A stretch of 61,613 nucleotides of DNA, the filler included, from Hausera hauseri (taxonomy: Eukaryota): the NCBI GenBank assembly GCA_046269625.1. It is 12 parts of 12 records of this genome, joined end to end, with 100 filler letters (N's around TTAATTAATTAA, not from the genome) between each part and the next. Parts side by side here need not be neighbours in the genome. Positions count along the whole stretch, not along the records: positions 44,006 to 47,967 come from JBJURY010854855.1; 11 more parts are not named here. One strand, written 5' to 3'. Of the stretch, positions 38,106 through 61,613 are shown piece after piece. The first letter of the stretch is position 1. Each line of letters begins with the position of its first letter. A program made the position numbers and the translations under genes. The notes under the pieces are model-generated. The model did not search any database, was not told the DNA's origin, and saw only the letters and a list, made by a program, of their open reading frames with translations.

Positions 38106-39540
38106 NNNNNNNNNNNNNNNNNNNNNNNNNNNNNNNNNNNNNNNNNNNNTTAATTAATTAANNNNNNNNNNNNNNNNNNNNNNNNNNNNNNNNNNNNNNN
38201 NNNNNGGTAAGCCTTCACCTTTCTACATGGACGTGTAGAAAATACACAGAAACTTACCTGTAGCTCTTACTTACTGGGAAGTAAACTACGAAACCTTCAC
38301 AAACAACATAAACACATTTCTTTTTTTTTTCTCTCTTTCACTTTTTTTTTGTTTGTTTGCTAACATTAAAATTACCAGGGTTATTAAATCACCAAGGTTA
38401 ATTAAAATTGTTTGCATATTGAATTACATGTCTTTAATTAATGTCATTTGAACTAATGTTTGTTGAAAATTTATGTTACGCTATTAAATTATGTACAGAA
38501 TACCATATCGTGAATCGTATCATATATAATTCAAATTGTATTAAGAGTATATCAATTGAAATTAAAAAATGCTACTTAAGTTAAGGTAGCATGTTTGAAT
38601 ATATATTTCCATTTTGATATGTACTCGAAGACTACTAATACTTTTAATCACAAATATGTATAATGTATACCTTGTTCTATGATATTTTATTATGAATCAT
38701 GTGTTTAAAATATGTTTACTTGTTATAGTATAATATGTTTTATATGGTTAATCAGAATTCAAATATGTAGTATAATATTGTTTCATGAATAAGTGTTGAA
38801 ATTACCCAAAGAACATTACCCAGTGCCAAATTATAATGAGAATTTTGTGTAAAGGGCCCTTAATTACATTAAGATTACTCAATTATAATACTCACTGAAG
38901 GTTCAAATCAAATGTTCATATTTACTCACCTATTAAATGTAAATACATCAATCATTTCAGGATTTATCTAAATGTTTAGTGATCACTTAATATTGTAAGT
39001 TTTAAAATTATTTTTGTATGGAAATGCTATTATTAACTTTTAAAACATACTGTTTATATCATCATATTCTAGTAATTATAATGAATAAGAATGAGTATAT
39101 CTGCTAAATAACCATAAATTGTTTTGTTCTAAGTATTAAACAGTTCTTGTGTATAATGTTATAATTTTGTATAATATAAAATATTTGTATAATCACAAAG
39201 TACCAGAACTTAAGATTAGGAAATTCATATGACATGTTGATATCAAATCCTTCGAAGTATTAACATTGAAGCACTTATTTCCTTATGATGTATAATGCCT
39301 GGTTAAAAAATATGTAAAAATTTATGTAAATTCCAAAATATCAATGTTCATAAGTTTTAATCCAAGTATTTATGATAAAGAATTATGATAATGTAACCAA
39401 ATTGTAAAAATCTTATATACTCAAGGATGCTATGTTATAAAAGAAATATGGTAATATAATTGAATGGTAAAAGAAAGTAACTGGCATTGAAGAGCATGCC
39501 TTCACAGGAAGACATCCTCTTACCCAAAAGGGGAGGATAA

Positions 39541-40187
39541 TGTTAAAAATATTTTAAAGGACCATTCCATATTCTAAATATCCCGACTCACTCAGTAAAA
39601 TCGTTAATTAACCCCTTTTCCAAAAACCCCATCTTTAAATTGCCGTTTTTAATTTCGTACATGCCCTTTATATTTTCCTCTCTTTCGATTTAACTTAAAT
39701 GTATAAAACTCACTTTTATCTTATGTAAGCAAATTCCCACGCACAACGCCGTCTGGATGGCGCTTGTCAAATATGCAGTTTCGGATTCATGATGCTAGTT
39801 GGCTATTTTTATCATAGTCCATTTTCCAGTTTTGATTTAGCCTGTCGTAAGTAAATTGTTCACGCGTTTTAATGCCAATTGCTTTCTTCACACACAAAAC
39901 GATTAAAAGAGGTAACCCTTTTTTGGCGTCGATTGGAAGTCTAGCGCCGTGTGAACTCTTGAGAAGAGAATGAAATAAGTCCCCGATATGATATGACGCA
40001 CTTTTGCGGTGCTCTAAATTGCATTCTATTATGTCTACATTGTAATTAATATCCTATTTTATAATTAAATAAAGAATTAAAGAAGACTCTTTTGTATCGG
40101 CGTCCTCAATGATTTAAAATGCCGCTAATTCAAGTAAGTAAAACTTATTTAACGCTTCGCCCGACTGCAACTAAGAAAATCGTAACA
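39541..40187 (+). mobile_element. Gypsy LTR (647 bp) flanked by an upstream PPT and a downstream PBS-like site
   Basis: TGTTA...TAACA termini; AAAAGGGGAGGATAA immediately 5'; AGTCGACAGGATT (partial tRNA-Ser complement) at 40196-40208; internal AATAAA. Confidence 0.8.
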
Positions 40188-40352
40188 TCTTAACCAGTCG
40201 ACAGGATTTGGGAAGTATTAAATCCCACCTGTGGCTGTCATGATACGGGGAAAAATCCCATGATTTCGAACTATTAAAGAACTAAATTAGACAAAATTCT
40301 GAACGAACTAAAAATCGAAACTTTTCAAATTAAGTCTTCTATTTTGTGCAAC

Positions 40353-41213
40353 ATGGCGACCAATTCGAACATTGTTTTCGCCAATGAAAAATCAACAATC
40401 TCTATTACGAACTTATTTAAATTTATAGAGAAAAAGTTCGAAGAGAATACCACCGATGTTGCGAAAATTAACAGTTTTGTCAACTTCCTATCCGGGGAAG
40501 CATTGACTTTTTACTGTGAAGACTGTGTCGAAATAAATTCCTGGACTGACTTAAAACTTAAATTTACAGAGAAATTCCGACCCGTTCCCCCTGATTATAA
40601 AACATTTTCGGAAATGAAATTGATTGATAAAGAACATTTTGATGAATATTTTCAAAAGAAAGTTTCGATGGGGAAAAAGATGCAGTTGCGAGAGGAAATC
40701 ATCATTGATGCCCTTAATGACGGTTTACCAGATTTTTATAAAAATCTCCTACTCGCTCAAACTTTCGGTAGTATAGAAACTTGGCAGAAAGCAGCCAATA
40801 AAGTAATTCAAGGAGCCGTAATTCCAGTTGAAGAATCTAAAAAGACAGAAAGAAGTTTTCCAAAAAATGATCAGGGTCGAAAGGAATTTTTCCCGCAAAG
40901 GAGGTATTATTCCGCGGCTTCGTCAAGATATCAGAACCCAAGAATTAATGAAACTTCTTTTGTCCCGTCAGCAGTTTATCAACAATCTCAATACGTTCCT
41001 CCACGTTATTATTCTACAAGAGAAACGCAACCACAATACCCACGGCCAGTGTTTAATTATCCAACAAGAAATGAGAGACCCCCCTATTTCCGAAGATATC
41101 AAGATCAGCATTATTCGTATCGTCCTCATACAACTTCATGGAGAGTTCCAGCACCTACTCCTGAACAATTACCGCGTAACTCGAACAATACACAAAATGA
41201 ACAGCTTCCATGA
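40353..41213 (+). CDS. Gypsy Gag
   Basis: FLSGEALTFY...SWTDLKLKFTEKF...IIDALNDGLP capsid pattern; downstream of LTR/PBS. Confidence 0.85.
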   Translation: MATNSNIVFANEKSTISITNLFKFIEKKFEENTTDVAKINSFVNFLSGEALTFYCEDCVEINSWTDLKLKFTEKFRPVPPDYKTFSEMKLIDKEHFDEYFQKKVSMGKKMQLREEIIIDALNDGLPDFYKNLLLAQTFGSIETWQKAANKVIQGAVIPVEESKKTERSFPKNDQGRKEFFPQRRYYSAASSRYQNPRINETSFVPSAVYQQSQYVPPRYYSTRETQPQYPRPVFNYPTRNERPPYFRRYQDQHYSYRPHTTSWRVPAPTPEQLPRNSNNTQNEQLP

Positions 41214-41228
41214 AACTTTATCAAGACT

Positions 41229-43905
41229 GTGGCCCTTTTGGGTGAAACCAATTCTAAAAACTTGCTTGTGAACTTACCTGTGATTATTGATACTGCCAGT
41301 AATGCCTCTATTATTGGGATTAATACTTTAAATCAATTAAACAATACAATTAATTTAGAGGCACAATCTACTCCTTCTAAACATATTAATCTTCATGGAC
41401 TAGCTGGAGGGGTAAGTATTCATTGTTTTCTTAATGTTCCTGTCAAAATTGGCAAATTAGTTAAAGTCATTAAATTACATGTTTTACCCTTTCCCCTTCC
41501 TCATATGATCTTAAGCCTTGAACATATAAAATTATTCAAATTGAAATTAAATTTTGAAAATTTTCAAGTATACCAATTTAAAAATAATATTACTTTGACA
41601 AGATTTGTAAATAATGCCACTTTTGACACTCATGTTGATAACCATAATATTGTAAATTATACAGATGTTGTTAATTTTTATGAACAGGATTACTATACCA
41701 GTCCAACTCACTTTTATGACCCCAATGTATATGATTTTCCTAATAATGTTTTTGAAAATAATTATGCTTTTGAAAATGACTATATTAATGATTATACTGA
41801 AGAGTTTTATGAAAATAATTCTAATTTTGATTTTCCTAATAATGCTTTTGAAAATAACTATGTTTCTGAAAATGACTATACTAATAATTATAATGAGGAG
41901 TTGTATGAAAATAGTTATAATAATTCAAATGAAAGATTTTATAATAATAATGAAAATGAGATATCTTATAACTATACTACTGATTCAAATGGGAACTGGT
42001 CTGAAAAAGATTACAATAATTGTTCTAGTGAAAATTTTTATACTTATCCTCAAAGTGAAATATTTTATAATAATGAACAAGAGAGTTATGAAGAATCTAG
42101 TGTGTACTCTATTCCTCCTAATGAGCAAGCTGACTTTCTTCCTGAAAATTCTTATGACAATAACTTACCTATTGAAGATATTCAGAATTTAAATAATTAT
42201 TATGAAATTCAAGATGCTTAAGAGGACTCATATAATATGAATCAAAATACTTATGATATAAACTATTGTGATGATGAAAATGAGTATTATGACAATCAAT
42301 ATCATAATCCTGACATGAATAGTCATTATAATAAATATTATTGGTATAATGATGATCCTATATATAATGTTGAAGAGGACTATAACCCAAATAATAATAT
42401 TAAGACTCAATTTCACTATAGTAAGAAATATTCTAAGAATTATTTTAAAAATTCTTATTATGATAATTATCATGCCAGAAAAAGGAGAAATAATAATTAT
42501 TATCATGCCAATAAAGGAAATTATCAGAATTTTTATTTTAAGAAAAATTACAATTCTAAACCTACTGTAAGAAAGAATACATGGATTAATAAGAATTATG
42601 GTAAAAATCATTATGACAATTCCTATAAAAATCCTCAGATATCATGTTACAGTAATTATTATAAGGACAAATGTGCAAATTCTCTTAAAACTTATGATGA
42701 TAATAATCCAAGGCAATATTCTTATGTACCTACTCAGAACTCTTATAATGCTCCTATATACAGAAAAGTACAAGTTCAAGCTAACTCAAACCAACATCTT
42801 AAAGACACCACTTATAATCAAAATATTGAACTCTGTGAATCTATTAAAGAGCCTAAATTAAGACAACTCGTTAGACAACATATTAATGTATTTGCTAAAA
42901 ATAAATTTGATATAGGTACCTTAAATGTAAAAATACCTCCCATAAAATTAACGTCAGACGCTCCAGTTGCCTGTAGGCCATATAGGGCAAGTCCAAAAGA
43001 TGAAATGGAAATAAAAACACAATTAGATGCCATGTTAGCTCATAATATTATAACCCCTTCTTGTAGCAATTATGCAGCTCCTGTAACTATGGTTTACAAA
43101 AAAGATGAAAAAGCTAAAACTAGATTTTGCATTGATTACAGAAAAATTAATAATGTTGTACAAAATGATTCAGAACCCCTTCCTCGAATTGATTCAGTCT
43201 TAGATAAATTGCAAGGAGCCAGATATTTTTCCACTGTTGATCTAGCATCCGGATACTGGCACATTAAACTCAATGAAGAAGACTCTTCTAAGCTTGCTTT
43301 TACTACAAATCATGGACTTTTTGAACCCAAGAGATTACCATTTGGTTATCGTAACTCCCCTGCTCTGTTCCAACGAGCTTTAAAACACATTTTAAATAAG
43401 CATAAGGTGACCTATGCCCTTAATTATTTCGACGACATAATCATTTACTCACAAACTTACGAAGAACACCTGAAACATTTAAATGACTTCTTTCAAATAT
43501 GTCTTAGTGAAAATATTAAACTTAAACTTTCAAAATCACAATTGGCAACTAACAAAATAAATTTTTTGGGCTATGAAATAACTGAAGGAACATGCACTCC
43601 AGCCAATGCTAATATTGAAGTTATAAAAAATTTAATACCTCCAAAAACTGTTAAAGAGTTGCAGAGGTTCTTAGGTAGCATAAATGTATATCATAAATTC
43701 ATTCCAAATTATGCAAAATTAAGAGCCCCCCTCAATAAATTATTAAAGAAAAACATTTCATGGAATTGGACAAAAGATTGCCAAGATGCCTTTCAAAATT
43801 TAAAGGAAACATTGATCTCAAAACCCATCTTATCATTGTTTAACCCACAATAACCATGTCATATGTTTGTCGATGCTAGCCAAACTGCTATAGGATGTGT
43901 CCTGA
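41229..43905 (+). CDS. Gypsy Pol (protease, Asn/Tyr-rich insert, RT, start of RNase H) with in-frame stops at 42219 and 43851
   Basis: IIDTAS protease motif, RFCIDYRKIN, DLASGYW, YFDDII and FVDAS, all in the gag reading frame. Confidence 0.9.
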
Positions 43906-44005: not shown

Positions 44006-45645
44006 CCTAACCATCCAGAATTAAATTGGCCAAACCACATGTACCATCCCCATGCCGTCGCAAATATATCCTTAGCAATACGCTTAGCATAATCCGGTCC
44101 CATTAAATTTTCCCAATTAGCTCTGCCAGTGTGTTCAGACAACACCTTCATAGCCATCTCTGTTAGAACCTTTTGTCTTTGTTGCGGGAACATCATCATT
44201 CTTCTATGATTTTCCATATCTTGTTGGGAATATACACCCATCTTTACTAGGTCTGTTAATGGCTTGTACGTTTGTTCCGTTTTTAAATTGATCAAGCTAA
44301 TCCTTCTAGGTGAGGTGATGTGCTCCTTGCCAGGCATCCTTATCCAGTAATCATCAGTCAATCTGAACGTTGGTGACATAGTATATGTACAGTTCTGATG
44401 TAGTAGCGGCTTTTCCATAGGATCCAATAGTATCCTAGTAATTGGTTGTAAAAAGCGTGGTTTCTCTTTATACCAAACAGGCAATTCCGTAGTACATTCT
44501 GCGATTGGTCTTAACTTAACAGTTACTCTTGCACATTCGAAGGTTACGAGAGCTTCTCCCATTGTTCTTGCGAACTTTCCTTCCGCATCTGGTGACTCAG
44601 CTGGGTCTTTCATTATGCCATCCGTTATTGCTGATAAGTATATCCGATTTCTAATTATTTCTCTATTCAACTTACAATCGTTTAGTATTATTTCTCGATA
44701 CATCGCGTAAATGTTTTCCTGTTGAAAATGATAGATAAAATCAATTTTATTATCAAAATACAGGTGAGGCTTCACTTCCGATTTGTGTATATTTCTTTTC
44801 GCTTCCTTTATTTTATTTACTGACAAGAATATGCCTTTGTAGTTCGTTCTATATACTACTTCATTACATTTTCTTGTCTCGCCTTCTAATTTGAACCTCA
44901 TTCCTTCATTAGGATCTACTGAATATACTATGGTTGGTGTCTCGATCGTATCTGATACTCGATCTAATCGACTTTTCGATATTTCTTCTTTATATATTTT
45001 TCCTTTGGTTTCATTAAACTTCCCGCTTCGTAACAAGGCCAACTGACATTGATCTTTGTCGACTTCATACGACATGATCGATTCACCCGTTTCACATTCT
45101 TTATTATAATAGTCACATTCTGGGAATGTCATCATTTTTCCAGATGATAACTCAAAAAGAGCATCATATTCCCTCAGCTCGACTTGATAGTCTTCGATAG
45201 CTACAACATTGTCGAGAATTTCACCATTAATATTATACGATTCACCTTTACAGTAGCCTGTTTTGTCGATAGTTCCTGCCATAAAGATTCTCTTGTTTAT
45301 GATTTTCCCTTTTTGAGCTTTAAGTCGAATATTTCCAATAGTTATTTGTCTTGTCACGAAGGCTTCTGTACACATTCGTTTACTTATCAAAAGTGGTTCA
45401 AATGGGGTAGTCGGTTCTACTATAGCCGAATTCCGGTACCAATATCCGCAAATAAAGTAAAAATGGTTTTTCCGGACGAAACATTCCTTTACCTTTGTTT
45501 TCGCAAATTCTGATTCCTGATACACGTGATAGTCTTTTTCTGGTACCGTAGTTAATGATGCTGGGTTGGCGAATGGGCATTTTTCTAAATCCAATAAGGA
45601 ATATATTGGACCTTCCTTAGCTTGACTGCAGTCATAAGCAATGAT
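44006..45645 (-). other. Env domain: chuvirus/gB-like (class III) fusion glycoprotein ectodomain
   Basis: IIAYDC...YSLLDLEKC start, C.V......CG, CTEA, GEALVTFECARVTVKLR...CTTELPV...FLQPITRIL...C and membrane-proximal WGWYMWFG, as in chuviral G and related retroelement envs. Confidence 0.78.
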
Positions 45646-47967
45646 CGAAAGTGTTTTTGGCACCAAACTGAATAGAAGGAGTATAGGTATAACTTTAGTT
45701 AACCATGATAAATCAAAATCTGGTTGTTGATTTCGTTGTCTCTCGGTTTGTTGAGGCGGAGGATGTTCCATTCGTCCTTGTATAGTTGGTACTGATTCAT
45801 GAATAGTTGTGTGAACTAAACTTGTAATCCATCCACCTCTGCACTTTACCCATCCTTCTACATTGGCTTTTAATGCTCTTGTAGCGATTTCTATATTTCT
45901 TTCAATTTCCTCTTGATTTGGATTCACGCCATTCATTACCATTATCTTATACAGGAGGTAGGACATAGCGGTTACGATTTTGTTTCGAGATATACCGGTT
46001 CCCATCATCCTTGAGAGAATATCTCTCTCCTGTATTTCGTTTATCCTTTCATCAGTAGGAATATCCGCGAATTGTTCACTTATTTTTGCAATTTCATTCC
46101 TAATGTTCTGCATTAGTGAGTCTGGTATTTGTAAATTTGTGTTAAATTCAATAAAGGAATTATGCATTCGTGCTAATAGAGTTTGTAGTAATGTAGTTAA
46201 CGACACATTATCTACATCGTATTCATCTTCTGTTGTCAGTAATCTTCGGACAACTTCGTCATCCCTGGCCTTTCTGCCTTTTAATTGATAGAGTTTCGTG
46301 GTTCCTTTAGGTCTTCCACGATTCCTCTTATCGGTTTGCATTTGTTCTGATATAGGCACATTCAATCCGGCCTCTGCCTGTTGAGGCATATATTGATGTT
46401 CGGCTTCTTGTGTTTCTTTTCGCCTAACATCCGTTACAATCTCATCTATTACTTCTTGTTCGGTTAGTCTATACGTAATGCATACTGGATTATATCGGTT
46501 CTCCCAGATACCTACTTCATATAAGGTTTCATGGTCCATTAATATTCGTCCATAGAAGCGTAACTCTAATTCGCCCTGTGGTTGCTTTACTTCGTCGATC
46601 CGACGTTTTAGCATAAGTATTGTATCTGATGATTTCATTCTGAACATCTGGAAATCTTGGTTATATTGTTGAAGAGTGACCATTACTTCTGGGTCTTCTC
46701 CAATGGTTCTCACTCTGATGGCATACCGATAAATTATATATCGTACGATATCCTGATATGGGCTTGTACCAGCAGCATAGGTTAACAATAAGTCCAATAA
46801 GTTAATGAATTGCTGATGGTTGATTGTTGGTGAGAGTAACATAGACAAATCTTGTCTAAACCGATTATCATCGATTAACTCTTGATTGGCATAGTTGGAT
46901 ATTTTCCGAACTATTTCTCTACCATCCTGGTCTAAATCCACAGATGAGGACTCATAACTTGGAGATTTTTCCTTCGTTTTCTTTTTCCTTATTCTTTTTA
47001 TCTTTTCTTTAGGTTCACCTTCTCTGCCTGACTCACTTTTTCCGCTTTCACTTCCGGAAGGTAAGTTCGGTTCAGGAGTCTTCAATTCCTCCTCTTGTAT
47101 CAAGGGCTTATCCTTTTTTTTAACCCTTTTCTTTTCGACATCGGATTCTGATGAAGGAGTCTTTTTTTGTCTACCAACAGGAGCAATGATTGAATTCTCA
47201 TCATTCATTTTCTGCCTTTTCTCGCAGATTTGTTGTTCCTTTAGTTCAAGATATAACTGTTTTAATTCAGCTATCTTGTCTTCATCTTCTATCGTATTAG
47301 TTTTACTCTCCTTCAGTTTTGCTCTGATCTTCTGCTGTAACTTTTCAATTGATTCTTCAGGTTCCGTATCAGTAGTTTCGTGTTCATTATCTGTATCTGA
47401 TACAGTACCTACTATGTCCACATTCTTCTTCTTCTGACTTGACTGTCCTTGATTAGGACAAGTGCGAGCCATGTGTCCATATCTTTGACATGCAAAACAC
47501 AACGGTTGTCCATCTTGATTAATTGGGGGTTTTCTTATGGCAGACTTTTGAGGTTGATTCTGCCAATTACCCTGAGATGGCTTTTGCCACGTAACTTTCT
47601 TCTGAGTCTGTTGCTCGGGTTGATTTTGGTACCTTTGGAATGATTTCGGGAAACTTTTCCTTTGTTGAACATTTTTCTGTTTCTTCTCATCGTTCTTAAA
47701 AGGCTTTTTTGCATTTTCAAGTCTCTCATAATTTACTTCAATTTTCCTAGCTTTGCTAACAGCTTCTTTGTAAGTATCCGGATCTGCAACTATGATGTAG
47801 TTCTGGATTTCTTTATTAACTCCGTAACAGAACTGAGCTAGGAGGGCATCTTCCCTTATATCATCATCTGCGTAGGCTCTCTGAGCCAACTTCTGAAGGG
47901 CACATGCATACTCTTGCACGGTTTCGCCTTTTCTCTGACGTCTTCTATTGAATTCTCCAATTCGACC
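44006..47967 (-). CDS. Gag - ubiquitin-like - AT-hook - Bcl-2-like - signal peptide - viral glycoprotein polyprotein (open at both ends)
   Basis: About 1320 codons without a stop; RRQRKGETVQEY gag motif, CFACQRYGHMARTC knuckle, Ubl-like segment, RGRP, BH-like motifs, hydrophobic signal then IIAYDC and a Cys-rich ectodomain. Confidence 0.88.
45815..46230 (-). other. Bcl-2-like helical domain
   Basis: BH3-like IAKISEQF, BH1-like GISRNKIVTAMSY and BH2-like VEGWVKCRGGW in the right order and spacing. Confidence 0.65.
46465..46686 (-). other. Ubiquitin-like (beta-grasp) domain
   Basis: SDTILMLKRRI...LRFYGRILMDHETLYEVGI versus ubiquitin SDTIENVKAKI...LIFAGKQLEDGRTLSDYNI; no C-terminal GG. Confidence 0.72.
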
Positions 47968-48315
47968 NNNNNNNNNNNNNNNNNNNNNNNNNNNNNNNNN
48001 NNNNNNNNNNNTTAATTAATTAANNNNNNNNNNNNNNNNNNNNNNNNNNNNNNNNNNNNNNNNNNNNTCCGCAACAGTTTCATCCATAATTTCATCATCA
48101 ATTATTGTACCATCGTTTTGTTCATTTGGGTCAATAATTACGACGTTACCATTGTCGTCAACATCTAATCGAAGACAGCACGGTTTGTATTCCATTGTAA
48201 AAATGATTTATTCCACACTCTCAAGTGTATTTATACTAAATTTCATCAACATGCTGCATTCTGATTGGTAGAAAATAAATATATATAGAAGTGTGAGTGT
48301 AAGTTTTTAAAAATG

Positions 48316-49571
48316 TTAGTAAACATTAATTAGTAATATATGTTCTTGGGGTAATACTTGCAGATACCTCGGGTATTCACTAAATCCTTTTCGGAATTTT
48401 TGTATTAGGGTATTGAGGTTATTTTCGGATATCGCATTCTGCATGGGATTTCGGGGTTTCCACTCGTGATCCCATCGTAATGAGTCATAGATATATTTTA
48501 TAAATTTGGTCCTTTGATTTGCTGTCATCAGCTTAGGGAATTTGGATCGTTCGCCATTCATGGCTTCTAGCATCATCTTAAATTGCGATTCTCGCGATGC
48601 TGACGGAAGCAGGCAACCTCTTTTCCGCATCAAGATATTTTTTACTTGGCACACTAGTGCTGGGTTTCGGCTCACGTCTCAAATTCCGGCCATGTATTCT
48701 TGCCTAATTCCTAGTCGCACCAGCGCTTCGTGCACCCGGAATCCGGTAACGACGTATCCGTATAAGGAATGGCTTATATCTTTTTGGATCTCCAAAAAGT
48801 CCTTTCCCTTTTTAAGCTGAACTTTCGTAATTCCTGCGACATAGGGAAAAGTGTCCTTTATTCTAACTCGAGGCGCAATTACTTTATTTAGCATCTCTTC
48901 CCCATTAATATTTCTTATAGAGACCTCAATTGGAGCATACCATCTATCATCTTTTTCTCCATAGTTCATGGTTAATATTCTGCTGTTTCTACCGTCTGAA
49001 ACTAATCTGTAGGATTCTCCATTTTCTCCATCTCGCCTTCCGATGGTTTCTTTACATATAATAAAGGTGGTAGCGGCTTTATTACCTCGGTTTGCCACGT
49101 CATCTCGATCATGATTTTGGTCGGAAGGTCCGCGATCCTAAATCCTAGGGCATAATTTATAAGGCTATAGCAACATGGCTTATAAGTACTAAACTTCCAT
49201 TGCCGCTTATTTTACGTACTCCAAGATTGTCCTACGATCCTATATTAAATTTCTCCATCAGCAGCATGTACGTACAATTCCTCCCGTATCGGCTCATATG
49301 GAATTAGATCTCTTAAAAGGTATGCCCGTACATCCTTTGGATTTCGCAAGGCACATAATCGAACCCATATATTCTCTGTTAAGCTCCGTTTTAGTCCGTT
49401 TGGTATTTTACTCTGTTGGTTTAATTCTAGATAGTTCTGGGTTTTCAGGTTTTCTCCAGTTTGTCGGTATAGACTTTTGGACAGTGGTTTGAGAACCGTG
49501 ACGTGTTGATGGAAGAAACCATCGATATCGTGATTGGAACTGACTGCTGGATTTTTCGCCTTCTCGGCCAT
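48316..49571 (-). pseudogene. Unknown accessory ORF (about 420 codons, disrupted) in Gypsy 3' region
   Basis: ORF pieces 49245-49571, 48679-49098 and 48316-48675 are nearly contiguous; TTATTTCAG acceptor about 10 nt before ATG GCC GAG. Confidence 0.5.
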
Positions 49572-49752
49572 ACTTACTCTGCTGAAATAAAAATAATGGT
49601 TAATGCTAAGACAGATCATCGTTTTAAAACAAAACATTTTCTCTGTCTGATGATAGGATAACCCGACCTGTAGTTGTCAGGTTATGCTATCACAGAGTCC
49701 GTCTTGGTGCCCTTTTTTCAACTTATCTCCCTTCCCATTTTTACAGCATTTA

Positions 49753-50972
49753 TTACAATTTTTGGAAATCATTTTGGAAAATCATTGCCGTTAATATGAT
49801 AAGAAAGAAAATTGACAAACTAAATATAGCTATTATCGGTAAATTATTTGGTTCAACAGAACTTTTCGTAGTAAACACTTTTTGAGTATTGAGATCTTTA
49901 TAATAAATTATTTCGATCTTATTGTCTAGAGTCCGCACGGTATAAGTTTTAGGATTCTTATCCTTTGCGGTGATTCTGACTATATAGTCATATTGCGGCC
50001 GTACTCAGCTTCCTGACTATTCTTTCTCAGGATCATAACTTGGTTGGTAATCAGGGTGCGACATTCAATTTTGACATCTCGATTTAACGTCTCTTCAGCG
50101 TAAAATAGAATTCTATCGCTTTTTGCCAAATTCTTAACTGGTATACTTTCTGGAATTTTGTCCGAAGTGACAATCGTAGTAGTGAAAGTTGTACTCTGAG
50201 CAGTGGACGGTTTTCTCGTAGTGATTGAAAATGGAAGTTCCCATATTCCGTTTTCCGGATGATATGCCCTTAAGTAAGTGCTTTGTTCTCCGGGGTACGT
50301 ATTGTACAAATCGAGTTGCAACTGACACTCTTGTCCTAGTTTTATTACGCAGCATATAGTAGGGCGGCGTCTGGCCAGATAACAATACTCCGGGTTAGGA
50401 ATAGAAGCATTCAGTTGTATAAATCGGGCAGAAATTTGTCTGTCTCCAGGCAGCTCTATTTTAGTCTCAATTCGTATACATTTATTCGTTAAGTCCTTGT
50501 AAATCCCTATAATGTTATAGTCTAAGAGTCTTTTAAACGGATCAGTGCTTCGGATTATTTTGTTCGTCTTGGCTTGGTTTGCGTCCTTTTATTGGGGCAT
50601 TCTTATTACGAGTTCTGTAATTATATAAGCTTGGGCTCCAAACTGATTAGAATAAAACATTTGAAATTTGTATCCGTAGAATTGTCCAAAATCCAAATCA
50701 CAGCATCTTTTGTGATGTCCGTACGGAAAATCACATGTTCTCATCGTGAATCTGGTTACAAATATTATTTAAAATTTTACGTGGCTCTTAACAGGTTTGC
50801 TTGCTTCAAACCATACACATGGTTGGCTCCAGTCCATATCGTGTACTCTAACTGACTGCATGTTCTGGATATCCCTATGTTTTATCGCGTATCGTAGTTT
50901 TTCGGCTCTAGTTATTGATTTCACCTTAGGTACATAAGAAGCGATTAGAGATAGGGCCAGAATTATTTACAT
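49753..50972 (-). pseudogene. Type I membrane protein ORF directly after pol (signal peptide, Cys-motif repeat, Thr-rich stalk, C-terminal TM), disrupted
   Basis: ATG at 50972 is in frame with ORF 49980-50321; IILALSLIASY signal; TM IIAIFSLSIFFLIILTAMIF; 4 stops and 1 frameshift. Confidence 0.6.
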
Positions 50973-53043
50973 ATATGATATCGGTTGGTTACGATTGACG
51001 ATGTTTTTGTTACTTTATTTGTTTTGCTCGAACGCAAATTATATCGTTTGTCCGGTCTTATTTCCGTTTGAACTACTCTCTGAACTGATATGACCTTTTC
51101 TTTACCGTTTTTATTTATATAAATTGCAGTTGGCGTATTCTTGGTTACTTCATAAGGTCCTCTGCCTGTCCTAGTAAGTTTCAGAGATGTGCCTTTCTTT
51201 GCTACTGGATAGTGTACATAAACCTAGTTTCCTGGTTCTAAATTGTGGAGTTTATCTTTCTTATCGTATTGCTTCTTGAATTGTTCCTGGTATTCTTTAG
51301 ATAATTCCTTGGCTATTTCCCAACCCTTGTGTAGTCTTGATTGTAGTACCTCGACAAAACTTTGCTCTAAATCTTCCGCTTTTGTTGTGTAGGGAATTAA
51401 TCCTAAATCTATAGGTAGTACAACTTCTCTGCCATACATCATAAAAATGGAGTGAATCCTGTCGCAGGATGTGGAGTAGTATTAATGGCAAATTGTGTAC
51501 CTTCCAAGAACTCAGCCCAATCTTTCTGGTCTTTTGAGACTATTGTCGATAAGATTCGTATAACTGTTGCGTTCATTCGCTCAACAATTCCATTACATTG
51601 GGGATGATAAACCGCAGTAGTTAGTCGTTCAGTCTCAAAAAATTTGGTAATTTTATCGAACAATTCGCTCGTAAAGTTTCTTCCTCGGTCTTTCAAGATT
51701 TGTTCGGGTGGCCCGTATTTGCAAATGATTTTCCGAAATACTGCTTCTGTTAAAGTCTCGGCCTTTTGGTCTAATAACGCTATAAGCTCCACGAAATGAG
51801 TCAATCGGTCTACACAGGACAAAATGTATTTTTTATTATTGTGGGTCGTATACAATGGTCCTACAATATCCATTGACATTGCTTGCATTGATCTATCGGG
51901 CACGTCGATAGGCTTAAGCTCGGCGATGTAGCTTTTCACTTTTCTTTGTTTGGTTGCACTTAATTCACAAGGGTTCACCCAATTTCTTACGTCGATGTAG
52001 ATGCTCGGCCTATAATATTTATTTAATATTCTTTCCAATGTCTTTTTACATGACATGTGTCCCGCTAAATACGAATCATGCTCGGTCATTAGTACTTCTG
52101 TACGCAATCCTTTTAGTATGACTACCAATTTTTGTCCTTTGCGTTCGTAGTATAACATATTATCGTTGTTCAAGTCTCCAGCGACGCAATATTTATGACC
52201 ATATCGTCGTAGGTGTTTCCGTAACTGATGACCCTTTGGTGTTACGTTGGCATCAACGAACTCGATAATCTGCTGTATAACCTTGTCCTTTTTCTGTTCG
52301 ACAGCAATCCCCAATGCCTTATCTAGTGTAAGGGTCCGTTGTCTTTCTACAAAATTTTCAGGGTGTGCTTTCCTTATTACTGTAACTGCGCTTGTTTTGA
52401 TTTTAAGTCTCGATAATGCGTCGGTGTCGATATGTTTATTTCCGGGATTGTATTGGAATTCAGTATTGTAACGTGAAATTTCCTCAATCCATCTGCTCAG
52501 TTTACAATTTGGATTATTCACTCTACCCTTTAAAGTCTTAACTGCATTATGATCAGTAACGATTACATTCTTTTGCCCATAGACATACATGTTAAAGTGT
52601 CGCAGTGCTTCTGCCACTGCCAACGTTTCCAACTCTGTTACGGAATAGTTCTTCTCAGCTTTCTTTAAGGAACGTCCTCCGTATACAATTGGGTGTTCCA
52701 TTTCCTCGTCTTCTCGTTTTTGGGCCAGTTCATATCCGATGCCTTCCTTAGTGGCATCCGTTTTGATTATGAACGGTAGGTTGAAGTCAGGATATTTTAA
52801 AACAGGTTCACTAGTCAGAATTTTCTTCATTTTATCAAAAGCTTTTTGTTCAACATCGTTTCATTTCCATTTGATTCCCTTCTTCAATAAGCGATATAAA
52901 GGTGCGTTTATCTTCTCATTGTCTGGCAAATAGGTGGCATAATACCCACACAATCCTAACCAGTGCCTTAATTCCTTCTGATTTTGAGGTTCCATACAAT
53001 CCGATATCTTACTTAATAATGATTTATCCGGCTTCCATCCACC
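50963..53043 (-). mobile_element. Gypsy pol: RT end, RNase H, integrase with GPY/F
   Basis: IKTDAT, NYSVTELETLA, TDHNA, HDSYLAGH, MDIVGPL, DRGRNFTS, YHPQCNGIVER and GPYEV. Confidence 0.95.
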
Positions 53044-53143: not shown

Positions 53144-53450
53144 ATTTAGATTTCACACCAATTGCACGTGCAAGACGACTAAATACACCAATGTATGTTA
53201 GCACGTACCGATACCCATCGTTTTTGCTGGCGTACCGAATCATTTCCATCAGATTCATTTGCCATACGTTATTTACACCGGTGGAACGCTATGCACGAGT
53301 GGGAAACCGCCTTCCTGTCGGTTTGGTTAGGCTCTATGCTAACTGTTTCCCGAGCCAACGTTGGATCTATTGCCGAGTCTGTTTGACAGTTTTGCCAGTT
53401 TGCTGACGCCAGTATACCCCACGAGATGATGCGGGTCGAACCACACGTCG
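53144..53450 (-). pseudogene. Polinton retroviral-like integrase N-terminal part
   Basis: YTGVSKL...RWLGKQLA*SLTKP.GRRFP...VWQMNLMEM..YASKNDGYRYVLTYIGVFSR matches the Polinton INT pattern. Confidence 0.8.
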
Positions 53451-53605
53451 CCCATCGGTGTTGTCGTCGTCGATGGTGCCGGTTTTGCTTGCAGTACAAC
53501 AATTTGAACGAAACGTAAATAAAAGATTCAGTAAACTGGGGCAAAATTATGAAAACCATGCACGCATATGGCCTAGTCACAATATACTTACCGTCATTCT
53601 TTATA

Positions 53606-54050
53606 CTATGCTGCAGAACCAATGAGTCCACCCAGCAATAACGTGACAATTGGCAGAACTGCACCAAGGAATCCACCATCTTGCTGCTACATGACCCCTC
53701 GTTTCAGTCGTTTACTACGGGCGTCGGCAAGGCCAATGAGTCGTTTTCGATACTTTAATAAATTCCGTTTTCCACTACCAATGTCAACGTGACCCACAAT
53801 GATATTGTACAAAATTTTCATCAAATCGTCTACTACAAATTGGGGACATGATCACATCATGTTTCGCTTATGTCTCGTTGGTGCCTTGCCACTGTGATGG
53901 TAATTTGCGTCTAGTTGCTACTTTTGTTGTTCGAAGCACAGAATTGATTAATCGCTTGACTGTTGCGGCGGTTCGTTTTGATACAAGATTCTTGCCAGGC
54001 ACCCGCTTGGTATGTTTATTTTTAAAAACTGTTTTTCAGGAATTCTTCAT
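53606..54050 (-). pseudogene. Polinton basic protein with C-terminal GGFL amphipathic tail
   Basis: LYNIIVGHV...LLKYRKRLIGLA...QQDGGFLGAVLPIVTLLLGGLIG. Confidence 0.6.
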
Positions 54051-54057
54051 TTTATCA

Positions 54058-54713
54058 CTATCGTGTCATAGATTTTTGAATTTGTTTATATACACATGCA
54101 CCTTTCTGATTGAAAATGTTTGTTCGTGTACGCATGTCATTGTAACACTGTTGCGTAAAGTCGATGAACAAGTATCTGTGTGGCTCGGTCGTAGCATCAT
54201 GATACCCATCTATCAATTACGCCCGGTTCTCAGGAAATGCTTGTAGTGCAACATAATCAATGATAGTCTGATCACCGGGATTTTTGAACAACACCAAATA
54301 GTGTACGTATAGATTTCATGTTCGATTCTGTCCGCCCTGATGGAACATGTTTTGCGTAATTAAAATAACCGTTACGCCACGGTGTCGTGCAATATTCGTG
54401 AACAGGTTGTTGAAGTCCGATTGTTTTTTTGCCACTTGAAATAAATCGTCAATGGCAATAACGTCACCGTTGCGTAATCTCTCTGGCCAGTTTTCATCAA
54501 ACCCATAAATTACCGTTATTGATTTCAGTTTACAAAATCCTCAATGTGCCAAACCGGACTCACCATCATCACCAACACCCTGATGCCAGTATATGTGATT
54601 GTACCGCGGTGAATGGAACATGTCACGGTAGTTCTGCAATAGTTTACATAGTATGTTTTGCCACTTCCACTGGGGCCTACAAACTGGAAAATTTCATCAT
54701 TCTGCAGCTTCAT
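54058..54713 (-). pseudogene. Polinton packaging ATPase (A32/FtsK-like)
   Basis: GPSGSGKT, VIAIDDL, LFTNIARHRGVTVILITQN, YLVLFKNP, DATTEPHRYLFIDF and RTNIF. Confidence 0.9.
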
Positions 54714-54810
54714 ATAAATAATAATAATGATGCAATCTTTCCTCACCACATGATTTGTTTATAATCGTGTTACACGCATATAAAAAGGTGTAGTATAAAC
54801 ACTTTCCATA

Positions 54811-55201
54811 ATGTTAGCTTATATGAACTATCGCGGACATGTTACCGAGTGTGACATTAACACACTACCTTTTAATCCATGGAAGCCGAGGCAGTATGTC
54901 TTCAAGTGTCCACCAGATTTTACATATATGATATTTCAATTGGGAACGTGTCGTATTATGGGTTGTTGGAAACCAATCACAGCTGATAAACTACTATTGT
55001 TCGGAATTGTCATTGACCAAATTCAAAAAATAACGGTAACGACTCAGTTAGACTACCAAACAATCAATCTGTACAAATTAGCAATGGCCGCTGAATGTAC
55101 ATATGAACCCGAACTGTTTCCTGCACTGAGACTGACATCGTTTCGCACACCGTATTAATGTGTTTAGCAGTGGAAAAATTGTTGTGCTGGGTGGACTATA
55201 A
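54811..55201 (+). pseudogene. TATA-binding-protein-like gene (two TBP repeats, frameshifted)
   Basis: MIFQLGTCRIMG (repeat 1), INLYKL...YEPELFPALR...INVFSSGKIVVLG (repeat 2). Confidence 0.8.
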
Positions 55202-55592
55202 ACCGATTATTAATCAAATTAAAATCCACATTTCACAACAAACTATAAATACCTTTCCCATGCTCATTCAAGCAGTACTTCCATCGAAGACGACGATAAA
55301 GCGATTCTATTCAATGATACCGATGATGAAACTTCAGATTGGTCGTGGTTGTTTGGCTACGAAAAGGACAATTCTAATGTCAAAATGCTGAAACGAAAAC
55401 AGAATCTGTCCAACAATTATAAAAATCTAATGACGATTGTCTGGAAACGAAAAAGGAACTTGCTCAGAAATCATCAGTAACAAAACCGACGTTAAAAAGG
55501 CAAAATTCAATGATTGGAATAAGTAAACGAAAATCAAAACATCGTGTCAAACACAGACATTTTTACCGAAACGTATTTTTCGAAAGTATTAA

Positions 55593-55943
55593 ATGCATTT
55601 TCTGCAAACGCGTGTACTGATTTCATTGAATGATCCCGTGTATCTATGCGTACCCAAGTACAGCTATCGTGTAAAACGGCTTTCGGGTGAAAATTTGGAT
55701 AAACTTTCTGATGCTCTACATAAATTAAACGTTGATTTAAAGTTGAACGGAACGATCGTGCAACAGCAGTCTGTCGTTTTACCGGCTCAGAAAACGAAAT
55801 TATTTGATTTTATCAGTTGTGAAATGTCTCGTGCCCGACATGATGGCTTAAAGTGTCGAATGTATATTGAGTTACAAGGATACAAGGAAAAAGCTGGTAT
55901 CAAAAGCCCGATTTGGCGTGTAGCTGAAGCACAATTTGATTAG
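55593..55943 (+). CDS. Hypothetical Polinton accessory protein
   Basis: Intact 116-aa ORF followed by AATAAA and a T-rich tract, like its neighbours. Confidence 0.5.
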   Translation: MHFLQTRVLISLNDPVYLCVPKYSYRVKRLSGENLDKLSDALHKLNVDLKLNGTIVQQQSVVLPAQKTKLFDFISCEMSRARHDGLKCRMYIELQGYKEKAGIKSPIWRVAEAQFD

Positions 55944-56008
55944 CAATAAATTTTATTGTTTTGTTTTACCGTTTTTCTTTTTTCATTAACCCAATTAATA
56001 AGTGATTA

Positions 56009-56450
56009 ATGAATGATGTAAAGATTATCTTAACAGACGAAAATGCTTTTGTACCGAGACGTGTTACAGCAAACAGTGATGTGCTTTCCTATGTCAATAC
56101 GACAATTCCTGACAGCACAATCAAATGCATAACGACTGGAGTTCGATTGGCGATTTTGCCCGGTTACTACGGCCAACTTTTATGGAAAAGCAGATTGGCA
56201 AAACTCAGACTGACGGTTGTGGGGAGCGGCGGTGTCATTGATTCAGACCTTCGTGGTGAAATTAAGGTGTTGCTGTAAAACCAATCCGGGGAACCGTATG
56301 CTTTTTAGAAAGGCAATGCAATTGCACAAATCGGTTTTCTTCGCTATGAAGATGCGGAATTCAGTGTAATGTCACCGGAACAATGGGGATTGTTTTGCGT
56401 CAATGAATCGGCACGAAATGAACGCAAAGAATTTGGCTTTGGTGATATGG
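56009..56450 (+). pseudogene. dut: Trimeric dUTPase
   Basis: ITTGVRLAILPGYYGQL, GGVIDSDLRGEIKVLL, GNAIAQI and R.E.GFG motifs; internal stops. Confidence 0.88.
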
Positions 56451-56544
56451 ACAAAACCACCTATGTTTAATGATTGGGATATTAATAATAGTCAGTTGTT
56501 TTGCTTGTATTATAAACAAAAAATGATTTTGTACATGATAAGTA

Positions 56545-57031
56545 TTGGCGACAAGATTTATAGATATTGAAGCTTTCCAAGATGATAATACCCGGTACTT
56601 AATAAAGGAATTATGCATTATGGACGTCGGTAACATTTTTGAACCTCTTGTGTACATATTCAAGCCCGTTATTGTGTGGAAAGACCTGACGGAAAAAAGG
56701 AAAATTACAAATGGATTTCTCTTTCGACATCGTCATGGACTTCATTGTTATGAAGGCAATTTAACGTTTTATTCTCCATGTATAATGGGAGAGATTTGTG
56801 ATTGTTTTGACATTGAAAGTACAATAATTTACATTAAAGATCAAATTGACGGACAAAAGTTTACGCAACTTCATTCAGTTTTTCGAGTTGCGAATGACGA
56901 CGTATTCAACAACATCGAACAACTCGCTGGATATGGTACCTGACAATATCCGATATCCGTATCGTGATCACGGACCACATTGTGCTTACAAAAAATTCTG
57001 CGGCTTTGTATTGACTGTTTTGTGCAAATAA
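56545..57031 (+). pseudogene. DEDD-type 3'-5' exonuclease-like protein
   Basis: FIDIEAFQ...LIKEL...IFKP..W...HRHGLH.YEG...HCA pattern seen in Polinton/insect DNA-virus genes. Confidence 0.55.
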
Positions 57032-58013
57032 CTAAATATATGTACGTATTTCCTTTTTTCTGTAAATAATTTTCATGTCATGTTTAGCAGTTTTGATCAG
57101 TTGAATAATTCAAAAACCATAAATANNNNNNNNNNNNNNNNNNNNNNNNNNNNNNNNNNNNNNNNNNNNTTAATTAATTAANNNNNNNNNNNNNNNNNNN
57201 NNNNNNNNNNNNNNNNNNNNNNNNNTCATTTCATGTTGCGATTGCTTAAGTAATTCAAGTAAACAATTAATCTTTCATAAATAATTCGGAGCAGAGCCGG
57301 CGTACTGTAGGACCGTGGTTCAAGTAAATTAAATAAACAATAACTACACATTACCCATAGGATAGATAAGAAAGGTTTTCGCAAGATAATATCTCTGTTC
57401 ATAGATTGTTATTCGTCTCATTTATTCAACTTTTAATTGATTCTGTCACGTAACATTAAATAAGCCTCTCCCACATAAATTGACGGCGACTGAACAAGTA
57501 TGTAGTTAATGTTTTCTGTTTTCATAAAATTATTTAGTTAAAACTTAATTTTTCTCAATATTTGAGTGACACCGAAAAAATTCAAATAGATCTTTGAATG
57601 AATCCTGAAAGTGAAAACACCTCAGTCAGAGAAACTGCTAAGAAACTATACAGATGCAACAAGGAAATCCGAAATTATTTAAAGAAATGAACGAATTGCG
57701 GATTCAAAAGACCTTAAAAAGGCAATCGAATATTGACGTAACATCAACTTGGTTAAATTCGAGATGAGCTTGCCAAAAATCAACTGCATTCGACACAAAT
57801 TAATCGTAAGTTAGATCTTCCTGTGCCTATTAAACATGTTTCTCGCATGTTATTCAAAGATATTCAAAGAAAATTGAAAAAATCCAAATTATAAGTATAA
57901 ACCTGAAAAATAACAGGGTGGTATATAATTGTGAATGGCAATTTTAATTACTAAAAATACCCAAATAAAAATTTCGAAATTTTTATAAAGTAGGTAGTTA
58001 ACATAAAAATTAC

Positions 58014-60550
58014 CCGTAGCATTAATTTTAACCTTACGAGAACTGTCATTTAACAATCTCACCAAAAGTGGAATGGCTGGCTTTACGGATTGATACAATT
58101 TGTCGTTGTGAAAGAGGGAATTTTCAATAATCAGAGCACAACACTTACGAACAACTTGATCTGAATTTTCTAAATTTATAATAATAAACGACATCAGATT
58201 GAATGAATCGAGAACATCATAGAATGAACTTCTGCTACGTGTCAAAAGTCCAACTAAACTTATAGATCGAGCCAAAACTTCAGGCCTTTGGTCCTTCAGT
58301 ATTTGTATGAGTGGATCGTAGTCATCTTTATCGCCTTTAAGAATTGAACAGACAAGTTCTTCCGATTCAGGTACAAACCGAAGTATTTGACACAAAATTC
58401 CACAAACGCCACATTTAATGTCACAATCAGACTGGTTATCTGCCGATGGGGCAGGTTTAGTTAACATCCAGTCTCGAATTAATTGCCGATATTTTGAGTT
58501 TGACTTTACTGTAGCATAGATCTGATCCAGAAATATTTCGTCACTCATTGATAAATAAAATAGCAAGCCGACAACCATTTCAGCTTGTCCTCGGGCAAGA
58601 TATTTTTCAGAAGACGCCAAAATGTTATAAACAATTTTTAGATCGGAATAACTTTCTAAAAGCGCTTGATGCATTTCACTGGATAGCTAAACTACAAAGG
58701 GAAAACATAACATCTGAATCGAACAAATTAAAATATCTTGAATCAAAGTGTTATTATTTGGTTTGCTGGCTGGGCAATCGTAAATAAACTGAATGAAACG
58801 TTGATCAATCAATGCCCTAATGCAATTAAGACTCAGAGAATTACTCGAAACTAAACTTTCCACAGACGCAAATGGTTCCTTTGTAAAACTACAAATAGCA
58901 ATATTGAGAAATAACAGAATTCCCTGAGGAGAAACTAATGACCATAGTACATGATCCTCATCAGAATTTTCCAAAAACCCATCGATAACACCCAACGTTT
59001 GAGCCAACCTTTGCCAAAAATAATCCAATACTCGGTTTTCGAAAATTAGATGTACCAAAGAAAGATCAGGATCATATGTCGTTATCTGGTAAAGAAAACT
59101 AAATATGCCATCGAGTACTCCATAATTCAGCGGACACATTTGGTATACTTGATCGAGATCCATCAAAAGGTTTTTTGTAGCCTGTACAATTTCATGAGGT
59201 TCGATATGAATCGCAGTATTGTGAGTAATGAGCTGACTACACAATAATGCTGCAGCGGCCGTATGACTCGGCAGCTTTGAATCAAGCAACAACGCTACCA
59301 AGAGACCAATGTTTTCCGAAACTAATTTAGGAACTAATTGTACTTGGATCATTAACAGCGTAATACAGTGGATGACAGTTTCGATTGTAATTGGGAAGTC
59401 AATTTCTACAACAGATATCTTTCCATGTAGGATCTGAAAACATTGGTTTAAGAAATCCTTATTGTCAAAACACTGTCTTGCAAATCGAGAAGATATTTGC
59501 AAACAAACATAAATAATCTGTAGAGATCCCAAACATAAATTGTGATTACCCAGAAAATCCATAAGTAAATCAATAACATTCTCATTATATGATGAATATA
59601 ACGTTTCAGCTAAGTAGAATGCTATCTTTCTGCGAGCCTTAAATCCGGTTGCTTCTGGAAATGAAGTACTAATTAACGAATATATAGCACTGAGTGTGTG
59701 AAGAATAATTTCGTCAAGTTTACTGTTTGTTTGCAAAGACTCCAATTCAGACGTAGATCTCAATTTCTGTACCATCAGTGTCTCATCTTTCCACATTAAT
59801 AGAAATTTCAGCATTGAGTCGAGACTTTGTATGTTGATTGAATATCACAGTAAAAATCATATTTGATATTTCTTCTGGTCTATTTTCCAAACGATCACAG
59901 AGATATTTCAAACACAGAACACTTTGCTCTCTAAGTTTCATGTCAGCGTCACACTTCTGCGAAAATAATTTTGGAATAATGCTCACGAATTTCATTGAAA
60001 TATTCGAATAAAGATCTAATGCATCTCGTGCAGCATCATTCTCATGGGCGACTTCACTAGCAAAATAGGCATTAACACCGATCAGCAGATCCAATAAAAT
60101 TTGCTGATGCCATGGTTGCTTCTTAGCAACTTGTCGATCAATGAGATCAGCTAGTAATTTTATGATGTGTGACGGAATATTTGTCTTTGAATAAAAATGG
60201 AGTATTACGTCTAAATCACATTTTATAGTAATTGCATTCGTAATAACTTTCAACAGTGATCTGATTTTTGTAGCTCCCTCAATGTTACCTTCCAGAATCT
60301 TTTCGCGACAAAATCTAAGTCTTGCGGCTACTTTGGCAATAAAATCTTCTGATAGAAGAATATTGGGATCGCTGTGCTCTTCGGATTCATCAGCTAGTGC
60401 TTGCCATTCATCATCACTATTCTGGTCATCTTCAATATATTCGATCTGCTCAATTTGCGTAAGGGATTTTTTAAGACTTAAATTTTTCATTCCTTTTTCA
60501 TAATCGACACTAATTCGATTTTCCAATTCAGTGGGAGGATCAACTTTATC
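58014..60550 (-). pseudogene. STK36: STK36/Fused C-terminal regulatory (ARM/HEAT) region, no kinase domain, disrupted
   Basis: SDDEWQAL...ILEGNIEGA...QPWHQQILLDL...NAYFA...REQSVLCL, GVLDG, LVSPQG, QMLCFPF and AIPLLVRLLND; frameshift near 59800, stop at 58687. Confidence 0.85.
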
Positions 60551-60568
60551 ATCCCACTTCTGACACCA
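60551..60568 (-). promoter_or_regulatory. Primer-binding site, tRNA-Leu
   Basis: Exact TGGTGTCAGAAGTGGGAT on the minus strand, 3 nt after the LTR end ...CCCACA. Confidence 0.85.
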
Positions 60569-60571
60569 AAT

Positions 60572-61043
60572 TGTGGGTTGAAGTAAATCCATTAAGAATG
60601 ATAAGAAACAAATCCAAGACGAGATAGATACGACGATATAATGTAATCACAATTACAAAAAATTCAAAATCAATAACCAATAAAAATTCAATTTCCATAT
60701 TTACATTCATTTTTATTTACATACACATATACACTGCGAAAAGAAAGTTTGAAAACAAAACAATTACAACACAATTCTGGAAGAAACATCTACAAAGAAG
60801 CAATTCAAATCCATACACACATTCTGTTTGTAATAGCCTTCTCCACTTAAAGAACTGGCGGCTAAATTTTTCTTACAAAAGAAATTCTCCATCAGCAGTC
60901 GAATGAATCTGGTGGCACTGTTTGAAGCTTTGAGCAACATCATTTGATAAAGGTCTTTTCCGATAAAATAATTCCGTAGTATGAGAAATGAGTAAAATCT
61001 TTCCGTCGGAAAAACCAGACGCGCCCACCATCGCGGCACCACA
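60572..61043 (-). mobile_element. Gypsy LTR (472 bp)
   Basis: TGTGG...CCACA termini, preceded by PPT GCCACG9TGA and followed by PBS. Confidence 0.8.
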
Positions 61044-61092
61044 TCACCCCCCCCCGTGGCGGAAAAGAGACTGTGTAGTTGAAGAGGAAAAG

Positions 61093-61613
61093 CTATTCGG
61101 TTTTAGTACGGGCCAGGCGTTGTGTGCCATCAAGGAATTGTTCTCTGCTGTACGTGTTGAATGTCACTCTACGTGCCTTGTTAGGTGAATTTGTACATGG
61201 TTGTTGAGTGATGTTTTGTGATGGAGAAAATAGGGAAGATGAGTTAGGCGGGAATGAAGGTGATGAAGGTAAGACTGATGGAGGAGATGATGATGATTGA
61301 GTGTGATCAAACACTGAGTGCTGCAATGGCGCAAAATCATTTAGAAAATTGGTAGAAATGCCAGTTGAGTTTGAAGTGGAGGAAGAATTGGCATCCGGAA
61401 TGTCATCAATGAAGAAGGCGGGTTTTAAATTAGAAATGTGAATGTTATAAGGTTTGTCATGGCGTAAAATTGTGGCTGTGTGTGATGAGAGATTTAGTAG
61501 TTTATATGGGCCAACATATTGAGGTCTAAAACCAGAGGGAGATTGATCCTTTAACCACACAAACTTCGCAGAGTACAGATCTTTTGGAATATAGGGTTTG
61601 TTGTTGTTATAGA
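61093..61613 (-). mobile_element. Gypsy integrase C-terminus with Ser/Pro-rich tail (family of 25861-28470)
   Basis: VWLKDQ..GFRPQYVGPYKL...IHISNLKPAF...ARRVTF. Confidence 0.88.

Follow-up and report, generated by a model that had tools for sequence, protein, structure and literature searches.

We examined contig JBJURY010854855.1 of Hausera hauseri (assembly GCA_046269625.1), which occupies positions 44006-47967 of a window of 61,613 nt, a chain of 12 unrelated contigs joined by 100-N spacers. The contig very probably covers an inner part of the first reading frame of a Ty3/gypsy-type retroelement of high copy number, probably from a flatworm, that encodes a polyprotein of Gag, a ubiquitin-like domain (Ubl), a likely Bcl-2-like domain and a glycoprotein B (gB)-type Env, with pol likely located after Env. 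As an earlier reading of the sequence (hereafter the preliminary description) had stated, the whole contig is a single stop-free frame, which runs from 47967 to 44008 on the minus strand (1,320 codons; the encoded protein is here named P0001) and is open at both contig ends. The remaining two minus-strand frames contain 100 and 114 stops; given the base composition, a stop-free frame like this one would arise by chance with a probability of about 1e-44. In a Pfam scan of the whole of P0001, Monjiviricetes_fusion (E 2.5e-67, amino acids (aa) 760-1319), ubiquitin (2e-4), zf-CCHC (8.5e-4), Bcl-2 (4.1e-3) and Ty3_capsid (0.029) were found, of which Monjiviricetes_fusion alone scored above its curated cut-off; against PDB sequences, whole P0001 gave no match at E<=10. 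The absence of protease and reverse transcriptase (RT) between gag and env was borne out, and neither a protease motif nor a pol domain was detected in the frame by Pfam and motif inspection. Judged against P0002, a copy on a different contig, about 101 aa are missing from the start of P0001, and its C-terminal end falls before the transmembrane anchor of Env.

The C-terminal half of the frame (44008-45645; all features of P0001 given here lie on the minus strand) corresponds to the ectodomain of a mononegavirus/chuvirus fusion glycoprotein of the herpes simplex virus gB type (class III) and is aromatic where it meets the end of the contig. This family is described as class III and gB-like (PMC13524379). 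The assignment of the Env family is firm from Pfam (PF24664, the match given above) and from the ESM Atlas, in which the top clusters (0.90) were Monjiviricetes_fusion; a PDB profile search with the Env profile gave no match within the Env part. All 13 of the covered Env cysteines are kept in L001, a contig with a distant element described below. Env starts with the motif IIAYDC (45645-45628), directly after a hydrophobic segment (45646-45714, aa 752-774) that is the sole Kyte-Doolittle peak above 1.3 in the frame and is predicted from its hydropathy to be an internal signal or signal-anchor. L001 also has a hydrophobic stretch ahead of its Env, and in both lineages (the P0001/P0002 family and L001) the segment lies 25-40 aa downstream of the BH2 motif of the Bcl-2-like domain.

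Between Gag and this segment lie three modules with counterparts in host proteins. The Ubl, of the ubiquilin/RAD23 type (46462-46692, aa 426-502; Pfam ubiquitin E 6.3e-6), passes the Pfam cut-off when scanned alone (26.3 bits vs 25.4), its counterpart in L001 matches the same family (E 2.9e-4), and in a search of the PDB with a three-sequence profile the UBL domains of ubiquilins ranked first (E 0.0025-0.024), and its assignment is firm. It is followed by an AT-hook core with the motif RGRP (46309-46320, aa 550-553), which is found between the Ubl and the Bcl-2-like domain in P0002 and in P0003 (the protein of L001) too. The likely Bcl-2-like domain (45808-46230, aa 580-720) matched Pfam Bcl-2 at E 3.6e-4, below the cut-off, as did its counterpart in L001 (E 0.017, below the cut-off). 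A GGW at aa 711-713, present in P0001, P0002 and P0003, is aligned to the BH2 (W..xGGW) of Bcl-2, and Bcl-2 proteins make up most of the best 60 rows of a PDB search with the profile of this domain (E 0.15-1.1). The NWGR of BH1 is absent (SRNK stands at the aligned position, aa 660-663). The domain is 90% identical between P0001 and P0002.

The N-terminal part of the frame corresponds to the C-terminal part of a Ty3/gypsy Gag capsid (47713-47967, aa 1-85; Pfam Ty3_capsid E 0.029), a weak match that improved to E 0.0036 in P0005, a fuller copy of the Gag region; a profile including the N-terminus of P0002 matched the capsid of Drosophila Arc2 (E 0.025-0.041). Thus, the Gag-like N-terminal side and the class III-type C-terminal half of the preliminary description both stood. 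The capsid is followed by a single CCHC zinc knuckle (47458-47499, aa 157-170; Pfam zf-CCHC and motif position), one knuckle being present in each of P0001, P0002, P0003 and P0005, and by a charged, probably disordered linker (46936-47442, aa 176-344; 74% identity to P0002 and 23% to P0003). In the capsid-knuckle interval (47518-47712), about 60 aa found in P0001 and P0005 are absent, in frame, from P0002, and contigs of the sequencing runs X2 and X3 skip a similar stretch. Between the linker and the Ubl, a helical domain of about 80 aa (46693-46935, aa 345-425) had been overlooked in the preliminary domain list; Gag, knuckle, Ubl, AT-hook and Env of that list were recovered, the Bcl-2-like domain as likely and below the cut-off, and the positions given for the knuckle, RGRP, the hydrophobic stretch and IIAYDC were all confirmed. 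The helical domain is conserved in L001/P0003 (23% identity, 19 invariant columns) and is assigned to no family: it had no Pfam match at E<=0.05, and a profile search of the PDB gave one match (E 0.8). It may resemble the TFIIS N-terminal/IWS1 domains, but this is no more than a lead, such chains having appeared at a non-significant E 2.6-3.2 in the Foldseek search with a model of aa 340-736.

The domain order is the same in three elements. P0002, which begins with Met, is 74% identical to P0001 over 1,095 columns, with all modules in the same order (Env 82%, linkers 62-78% identity), and has no stop across the junction between the Bcl-2-like domain and Env; its sequence ends inside Env. P0005 is a third copy, of which the N-terminal part only was found. 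Among 1.84 billion representatives, aa 340-770 matched three: P0002, P0003 and P0004, of which the last, a ubiquitin-repeat protein that matches the Ubl alone, was dropped. P0003 lies on L001, in which Gag, one knuckle, linker, helical domain, Ubl, RGRP and Bcl-2-like domain (18-56% identity by segment) are preceded by 66 bases upstream of the Met, and are followed, in the same frame beyond one stop, by an Env with 38% identity to that of the window. The recurrence of the same module order in P0002 and in the distant L001 indicates that the order is old and conserved. A second locus from the P0003 scan (L002) carried phage-like primase/helicase genes and was rejected as a chance match. No locus of a relative was found in IMG/VR, in GTDB contigs or in JGI metagenomes (the last searched with the C-terminal half of Env). 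A word-based protein search found only P0002 among proteins of 726-2310 aa and only P0005 among those of 30-547 aa; it left out proteins of 548-725 aa and of more than 2310 aa, the size expected of polyproteins like those of the planarian Burro elements (see below).

The element belongs to a large, diverged repeat family. Four (X1-X4) of the ten listed sequencing runs were compared with the contig, and all 30 bins of the contig were covered in each of them. Run X1, which may be the source of the contig, contained 18,339 matching contigs (1,317 at >=99% identity, 3,386 at 95-99%, 7,702 at 90-95% and 5,934 below 90%), i.e., 13,636 of the 18,339 were less than 95% alike. Among the 40 best-supported of 1,292 variants, 28 were synonymous and none introduced a stop; substitutions of the same types placed at random would be expected to give 11.7 +/- 2.8 synonymous changes. 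The frame is under purifying selection. The preliminary description of a 'young or selected' element is thereby upheld as to selection, but youth is not indicated by the 1,317 of 18,339 X1 contigs that reach at least 99% identity.

The position of pol and the host are suggested by the closest relatives of Env. Chary and Hayashi (eLife, PMC13524379) catalogued GAG-ENV-POL errantiviruses with gB-type Env from nematodes, bryozoans and flatworms; GAG-ENV-POL elements are not monophyletic, and six of them (Smed_errantivirus_1-6, cysteine type C1a, up to 215 copies) are from Schmidtea mediterranea. As far as the catalogue describes them, these six resemble the window element in that Env directly follows the gag region with no pol between, and in being multi-copy; they differ in that pol is present, whereas the window element is seen only as far as Env. 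Compared by eye, their Envs show the motif order and 8 of 8 cysteines of window Env aa 809-1050. Five short motifs of the window Env occur 19 times in the Env table of that paper, 18 of them in the six Schmidtea C1a sequences, a count that is biased upward and supporting only, since the motifs were picked after the Schmidtea sequences had been seen; one of them, KMMT, was found in that table in two of the six Schmidtea C1a sequences only. Judged by sequence, the window element has the C1a features that were looked at (gB-type Env, C1a Env pattern, Gag upstream without intervening pol). In the main text of the catalogue, 'Bcl-2' and 'ubiquitin' do not occur, and such cargo is undescribed there. 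By analogy with these relatives, pol probably follows Env past the contig end. The host is probably a flatworm. Elsewhere in the window, an axonemal dynein exon (29947-30675, plus strand) is closest to vertebrate DNAH12 (E 8.5e-86), which indicates an animal host.

Several points weigh against this reading, besides the bias of the motif count. The likeness of the Schmidtea Envs was judged by eye, without an alignment score or a tree, and the flatworm host is based on the relatives of Env. No retrieved sequence extends past Env, and pol, long terminal repeats (LTRs) and primer site were unseen in them. X2-X4 share the variants of X1 at far lower depth, so that the four runs count as one source and are not independent. 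The only in-frame stop of L001 in about 1,400 codons (3058-3060 of that contig) separates the Bcl-2-like domain from the signal of Env, so the fusion of Gag-cargo and Env may not be universal. The Bcl-2-like domain, scanned alone, reached 21.5 bits vs a Pfam cut-off of 31.4; its best PDB sequence match was a designed repeat protein, followed by a BMC-H fusion, both ahead of the Bcl-2 proteins. Its AlphaFold model was all-helical and of low confidence (pLDDT 47.6), with no Foldseek match at E<=0.001 (the weak rows include many Bcl-2 chains, best E 0.72), and a wide fold search with this model returned generic helical bundles, with zero Bcl-2 chains among the top 50. A single-sequence fold of aa 340-736 (pLDDT 36.7) gave nothing in Foldseek at E<=0.001 either, and the Bcl-2-like part had no usable match in the ESM Atlas. 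The Bcl-2 assignment is thus likely from the sequence but not proven.

That no retrieved sequence extends past Env bears on an alternative in which the element has no pol of its own: a non-autonomous Gag-cargo-Env element, or one half of a two-part system, would be copied by the enzymes of a helper. Pol is indeed absent from all three Env-bearing elements, although in each the sequence runs out within Env, where the contig ends or is broken, and a precedent exists in TelKA2n of rotifers, a non-autonomous env-carrying family described as lacking most of pol (PMC5408684). However, if Env precedes pol, a missing pol is what one expects in contigs of 4 kb, and the closest Env relatives all carry intact GAG, ENV and POL in a catalogue that retained only elements with all three intact (PMC13524379). 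We regard a pol-less element as unlikely. The stop of L001, which reflects either decay or programmed readthrough, raises a second alternative, i.e., that a leaky stop normally parts Gag-cargo from Env and lowers the level of Env (and pol), the window copy being a derived permanent fusion. Its site at the junction of the Bcl-2-like domain and the signal, the one stop in the whole frame, would be useful for regulation. The bases after it, however, match none of the contexts that we assume to favour readthrough, P0001 and P0002 read through the junction, Burro is described as in-frame (PMC6431247), and in the single copy of L001 decay and design are indistinguishable; this alternative seems very unlikely. 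Still less probable is that the frame is a host gene that arose by domestication of a Gag-Env element. An intact frame with an excess of synonymous variants would agree with this, but active elements are also expected to show purifying selection, thousands of diverged contigs cover every bin, as in a repeat family, and introns are lacking. Least credible is that collapsed repeats were assembled into a chimera of gag, host genes and env, the misassembly against which the preliminary description was to be checked: although none of the listed contigs spans the whole stretch and assemblers merge copies of such families, the identical order in P0002 and the far more distant L001 and the single records in X3 and X4 that carry the Bcl-2-like end together with the Env start refute it for the domain order, and only the exact bases may be a mosaic of close copies.

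For the Gag-cargo-Env polyprotein with pol behind Env, a route of synthesis can be proposed. The half from Gag to the Bcl-2-like domain would be made, and would stay, in the cytosol. Aa 752-774 would insert in the membrane of the endoplasmic reticulum as an internal signal. Host signal peptidase would then cut ahead of the IIAYDC start and release Env into the lumen; cleavage of the predicted signal is plausible. A transmembrane anchor just past the contig end would stop transfer, so that a protease-RT-RNase H-integrase encoded after it would again lie in the cytosol. After the cut, Gag-cargo would remain held at the membrane by aa 752-774, which would place capsid assembly beside Env for budding, and the protease of the element would later free capsid, nucleocapsid and cargo. 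Cellular Bcl-2 proteins have a C-terminal membrane anchor. Because the signal sits at the position of this tail anchor, one stretch may both tether Gag-cargo and start Env, and aa 752-774 may also serve the Bcl-2-like domain as its anchor. The loss of NWGR in BH1 argues against canonical BH3 binding; judging from the sequence, this domain most likely uses a non-canonical surface to act on cell-death or immune signalling of the host. The Ubl would be likely to dock on the proteasome or on ubiquitin receptors, and the AT-hook to bind AT-rich chromatin.

None of the other contigs of the window matched the 1,320-codon frame, and the adjoining contig with RNase H-integrase (48068-53043, minus strand) cannot be linked to it for this reason. 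That contig contains a decayed gypsy RNase H-integrase, then several frames without family assignment; one of them (49756-50588, minus strand), with one stop and a hydrophobic end, is like a membrane-anchored third open reading frame (ORF) and had no Pfam match at E<=0.05. At 38206-43905 (plus strand), gypsy gag, protease-like and RT frames follow one another with one in-frame stop between each and the next, and a long insert rich in Asn and Tyr precedes RT, after the protease. Broken genes of DNA-virus-like or Polinton-like type were found at 53144-57125 (dUTPase, E 6.8e-8; TBP-like, E 1.5e-5; a P-loop ATPase fragment; and possibly an exonuclease motif), and at 57226-61613 (minus strand) an armadillo/HEAT-repeat gene with a long exon, which may resemble the C-terminal half of Fused/STK36. 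No Rfam families were found in the window.

Other LTR elements have captured a chuvirus/gB-like Env. Anakin, a set of BEL/Pao elements from mosquitoes, carries a chuvirus glycoprotein (PMC7642597). As far as that account goes, Anakin is like the window element in this capture, but belongs to BEL/Pao, whereas the window element has a Ty3/gypsy-type Gag with one knuckle. To our knowledge, Anakin has no cargo between Gag and Env. Non-canonical endogenous retroviruses of nematodes (Sacco et al. 2022, as cited in PMC13524379) reportedly carry env ahead of pol and an Env from an RNA virus. To the extent covered by that report, Env precedes pol in them as it probably does here, and the difference lies in the nematode lineages that carry them.

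The preliminary description had put the architecture forward as a candidate novelty, which does not hold: env-before-pol elements of gB type have been catalogued (PMC13524379), and the same order has been described in Burro/GYPSM1, giant gypsy-like LTR retrotransposons of planarians (Arkhipova and Yushenova, PMC6431247). Burro ORF1 (4,873-5,140 aa) contains Gag, knuckles, a Ubi2/SUMO-like domain, BCL-2 and an in-frame Env matching mononegavirus fusion proteins, then protease (PMC6431247); dUTPase and RT also come after Env in frame in Burro, whereas the window contig ends inside Env. On that description, Burro/GYPSM1 and the window element share a single frame Gag-Ubl-BCL2-Env with no protease before Env, the window match to Bcl-2 being below the Pfam cut-off. 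This likeness in cargo is drawn from published descriptions and not from sequence alignment, which also counts against our reading. The window element is compact, with about 810 aa ahead of Env when counted from the Met of P0002, and has one knuckle vs two or three in Burro; for the AIR1, Smc, MATH, BIR and ankyrin domains of the Burro cargo, no Pfam match at E<=1 was obtained in the window frame, and the AT-hook and the helical domain are unmentioned for Burro in section 7 of that paper. As neither the size nor these cargo features of Burro were found, we consider the window element to work like Burro, but do not file it as Burro.

A literature search for the compact form gave PMC6431247 and PMC13524379 as the relevant papers; fuller descriptions may exist in Sacco 2022, Grohme 2018 and Lee 2026. 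A bolder proposal, which we consider rather unlikely, is that the compact form is older than the giant Burro expansion and represents a minimal and deeply conserved core (Gag, helical domain, Ubl, AT-hook, Bcl-2 and Env) carried by hosts other than the planarian families reported for Burro, in which a captured Bcl-2 membrane tail became the Env signal peptide; in its boldest form, this core would be a pol-less enveloped satellite. According to PMC13465017, which cites Lee et al. 2026, stem cells of planarians are protected by B-IAP, the other anti-apoptotic module of Burro1, and this report makes the compact cargo matter more. Of interest are the compact core, the helical domain, the non-canonical Bcl-2-like domain, the stop of L001 and the host. 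The layout itself is not new, having already been published for planarian elements, and the compact form is an addition to this known group: the window family and L001, divergent from each other and both compact, join the little-studied enveloped retroelements with host-like cell-death and ubiquitin modules, and their short cargo (about 380 aa), with small domains suited to single study, shows which modules persist without the giant cargo of Burro.

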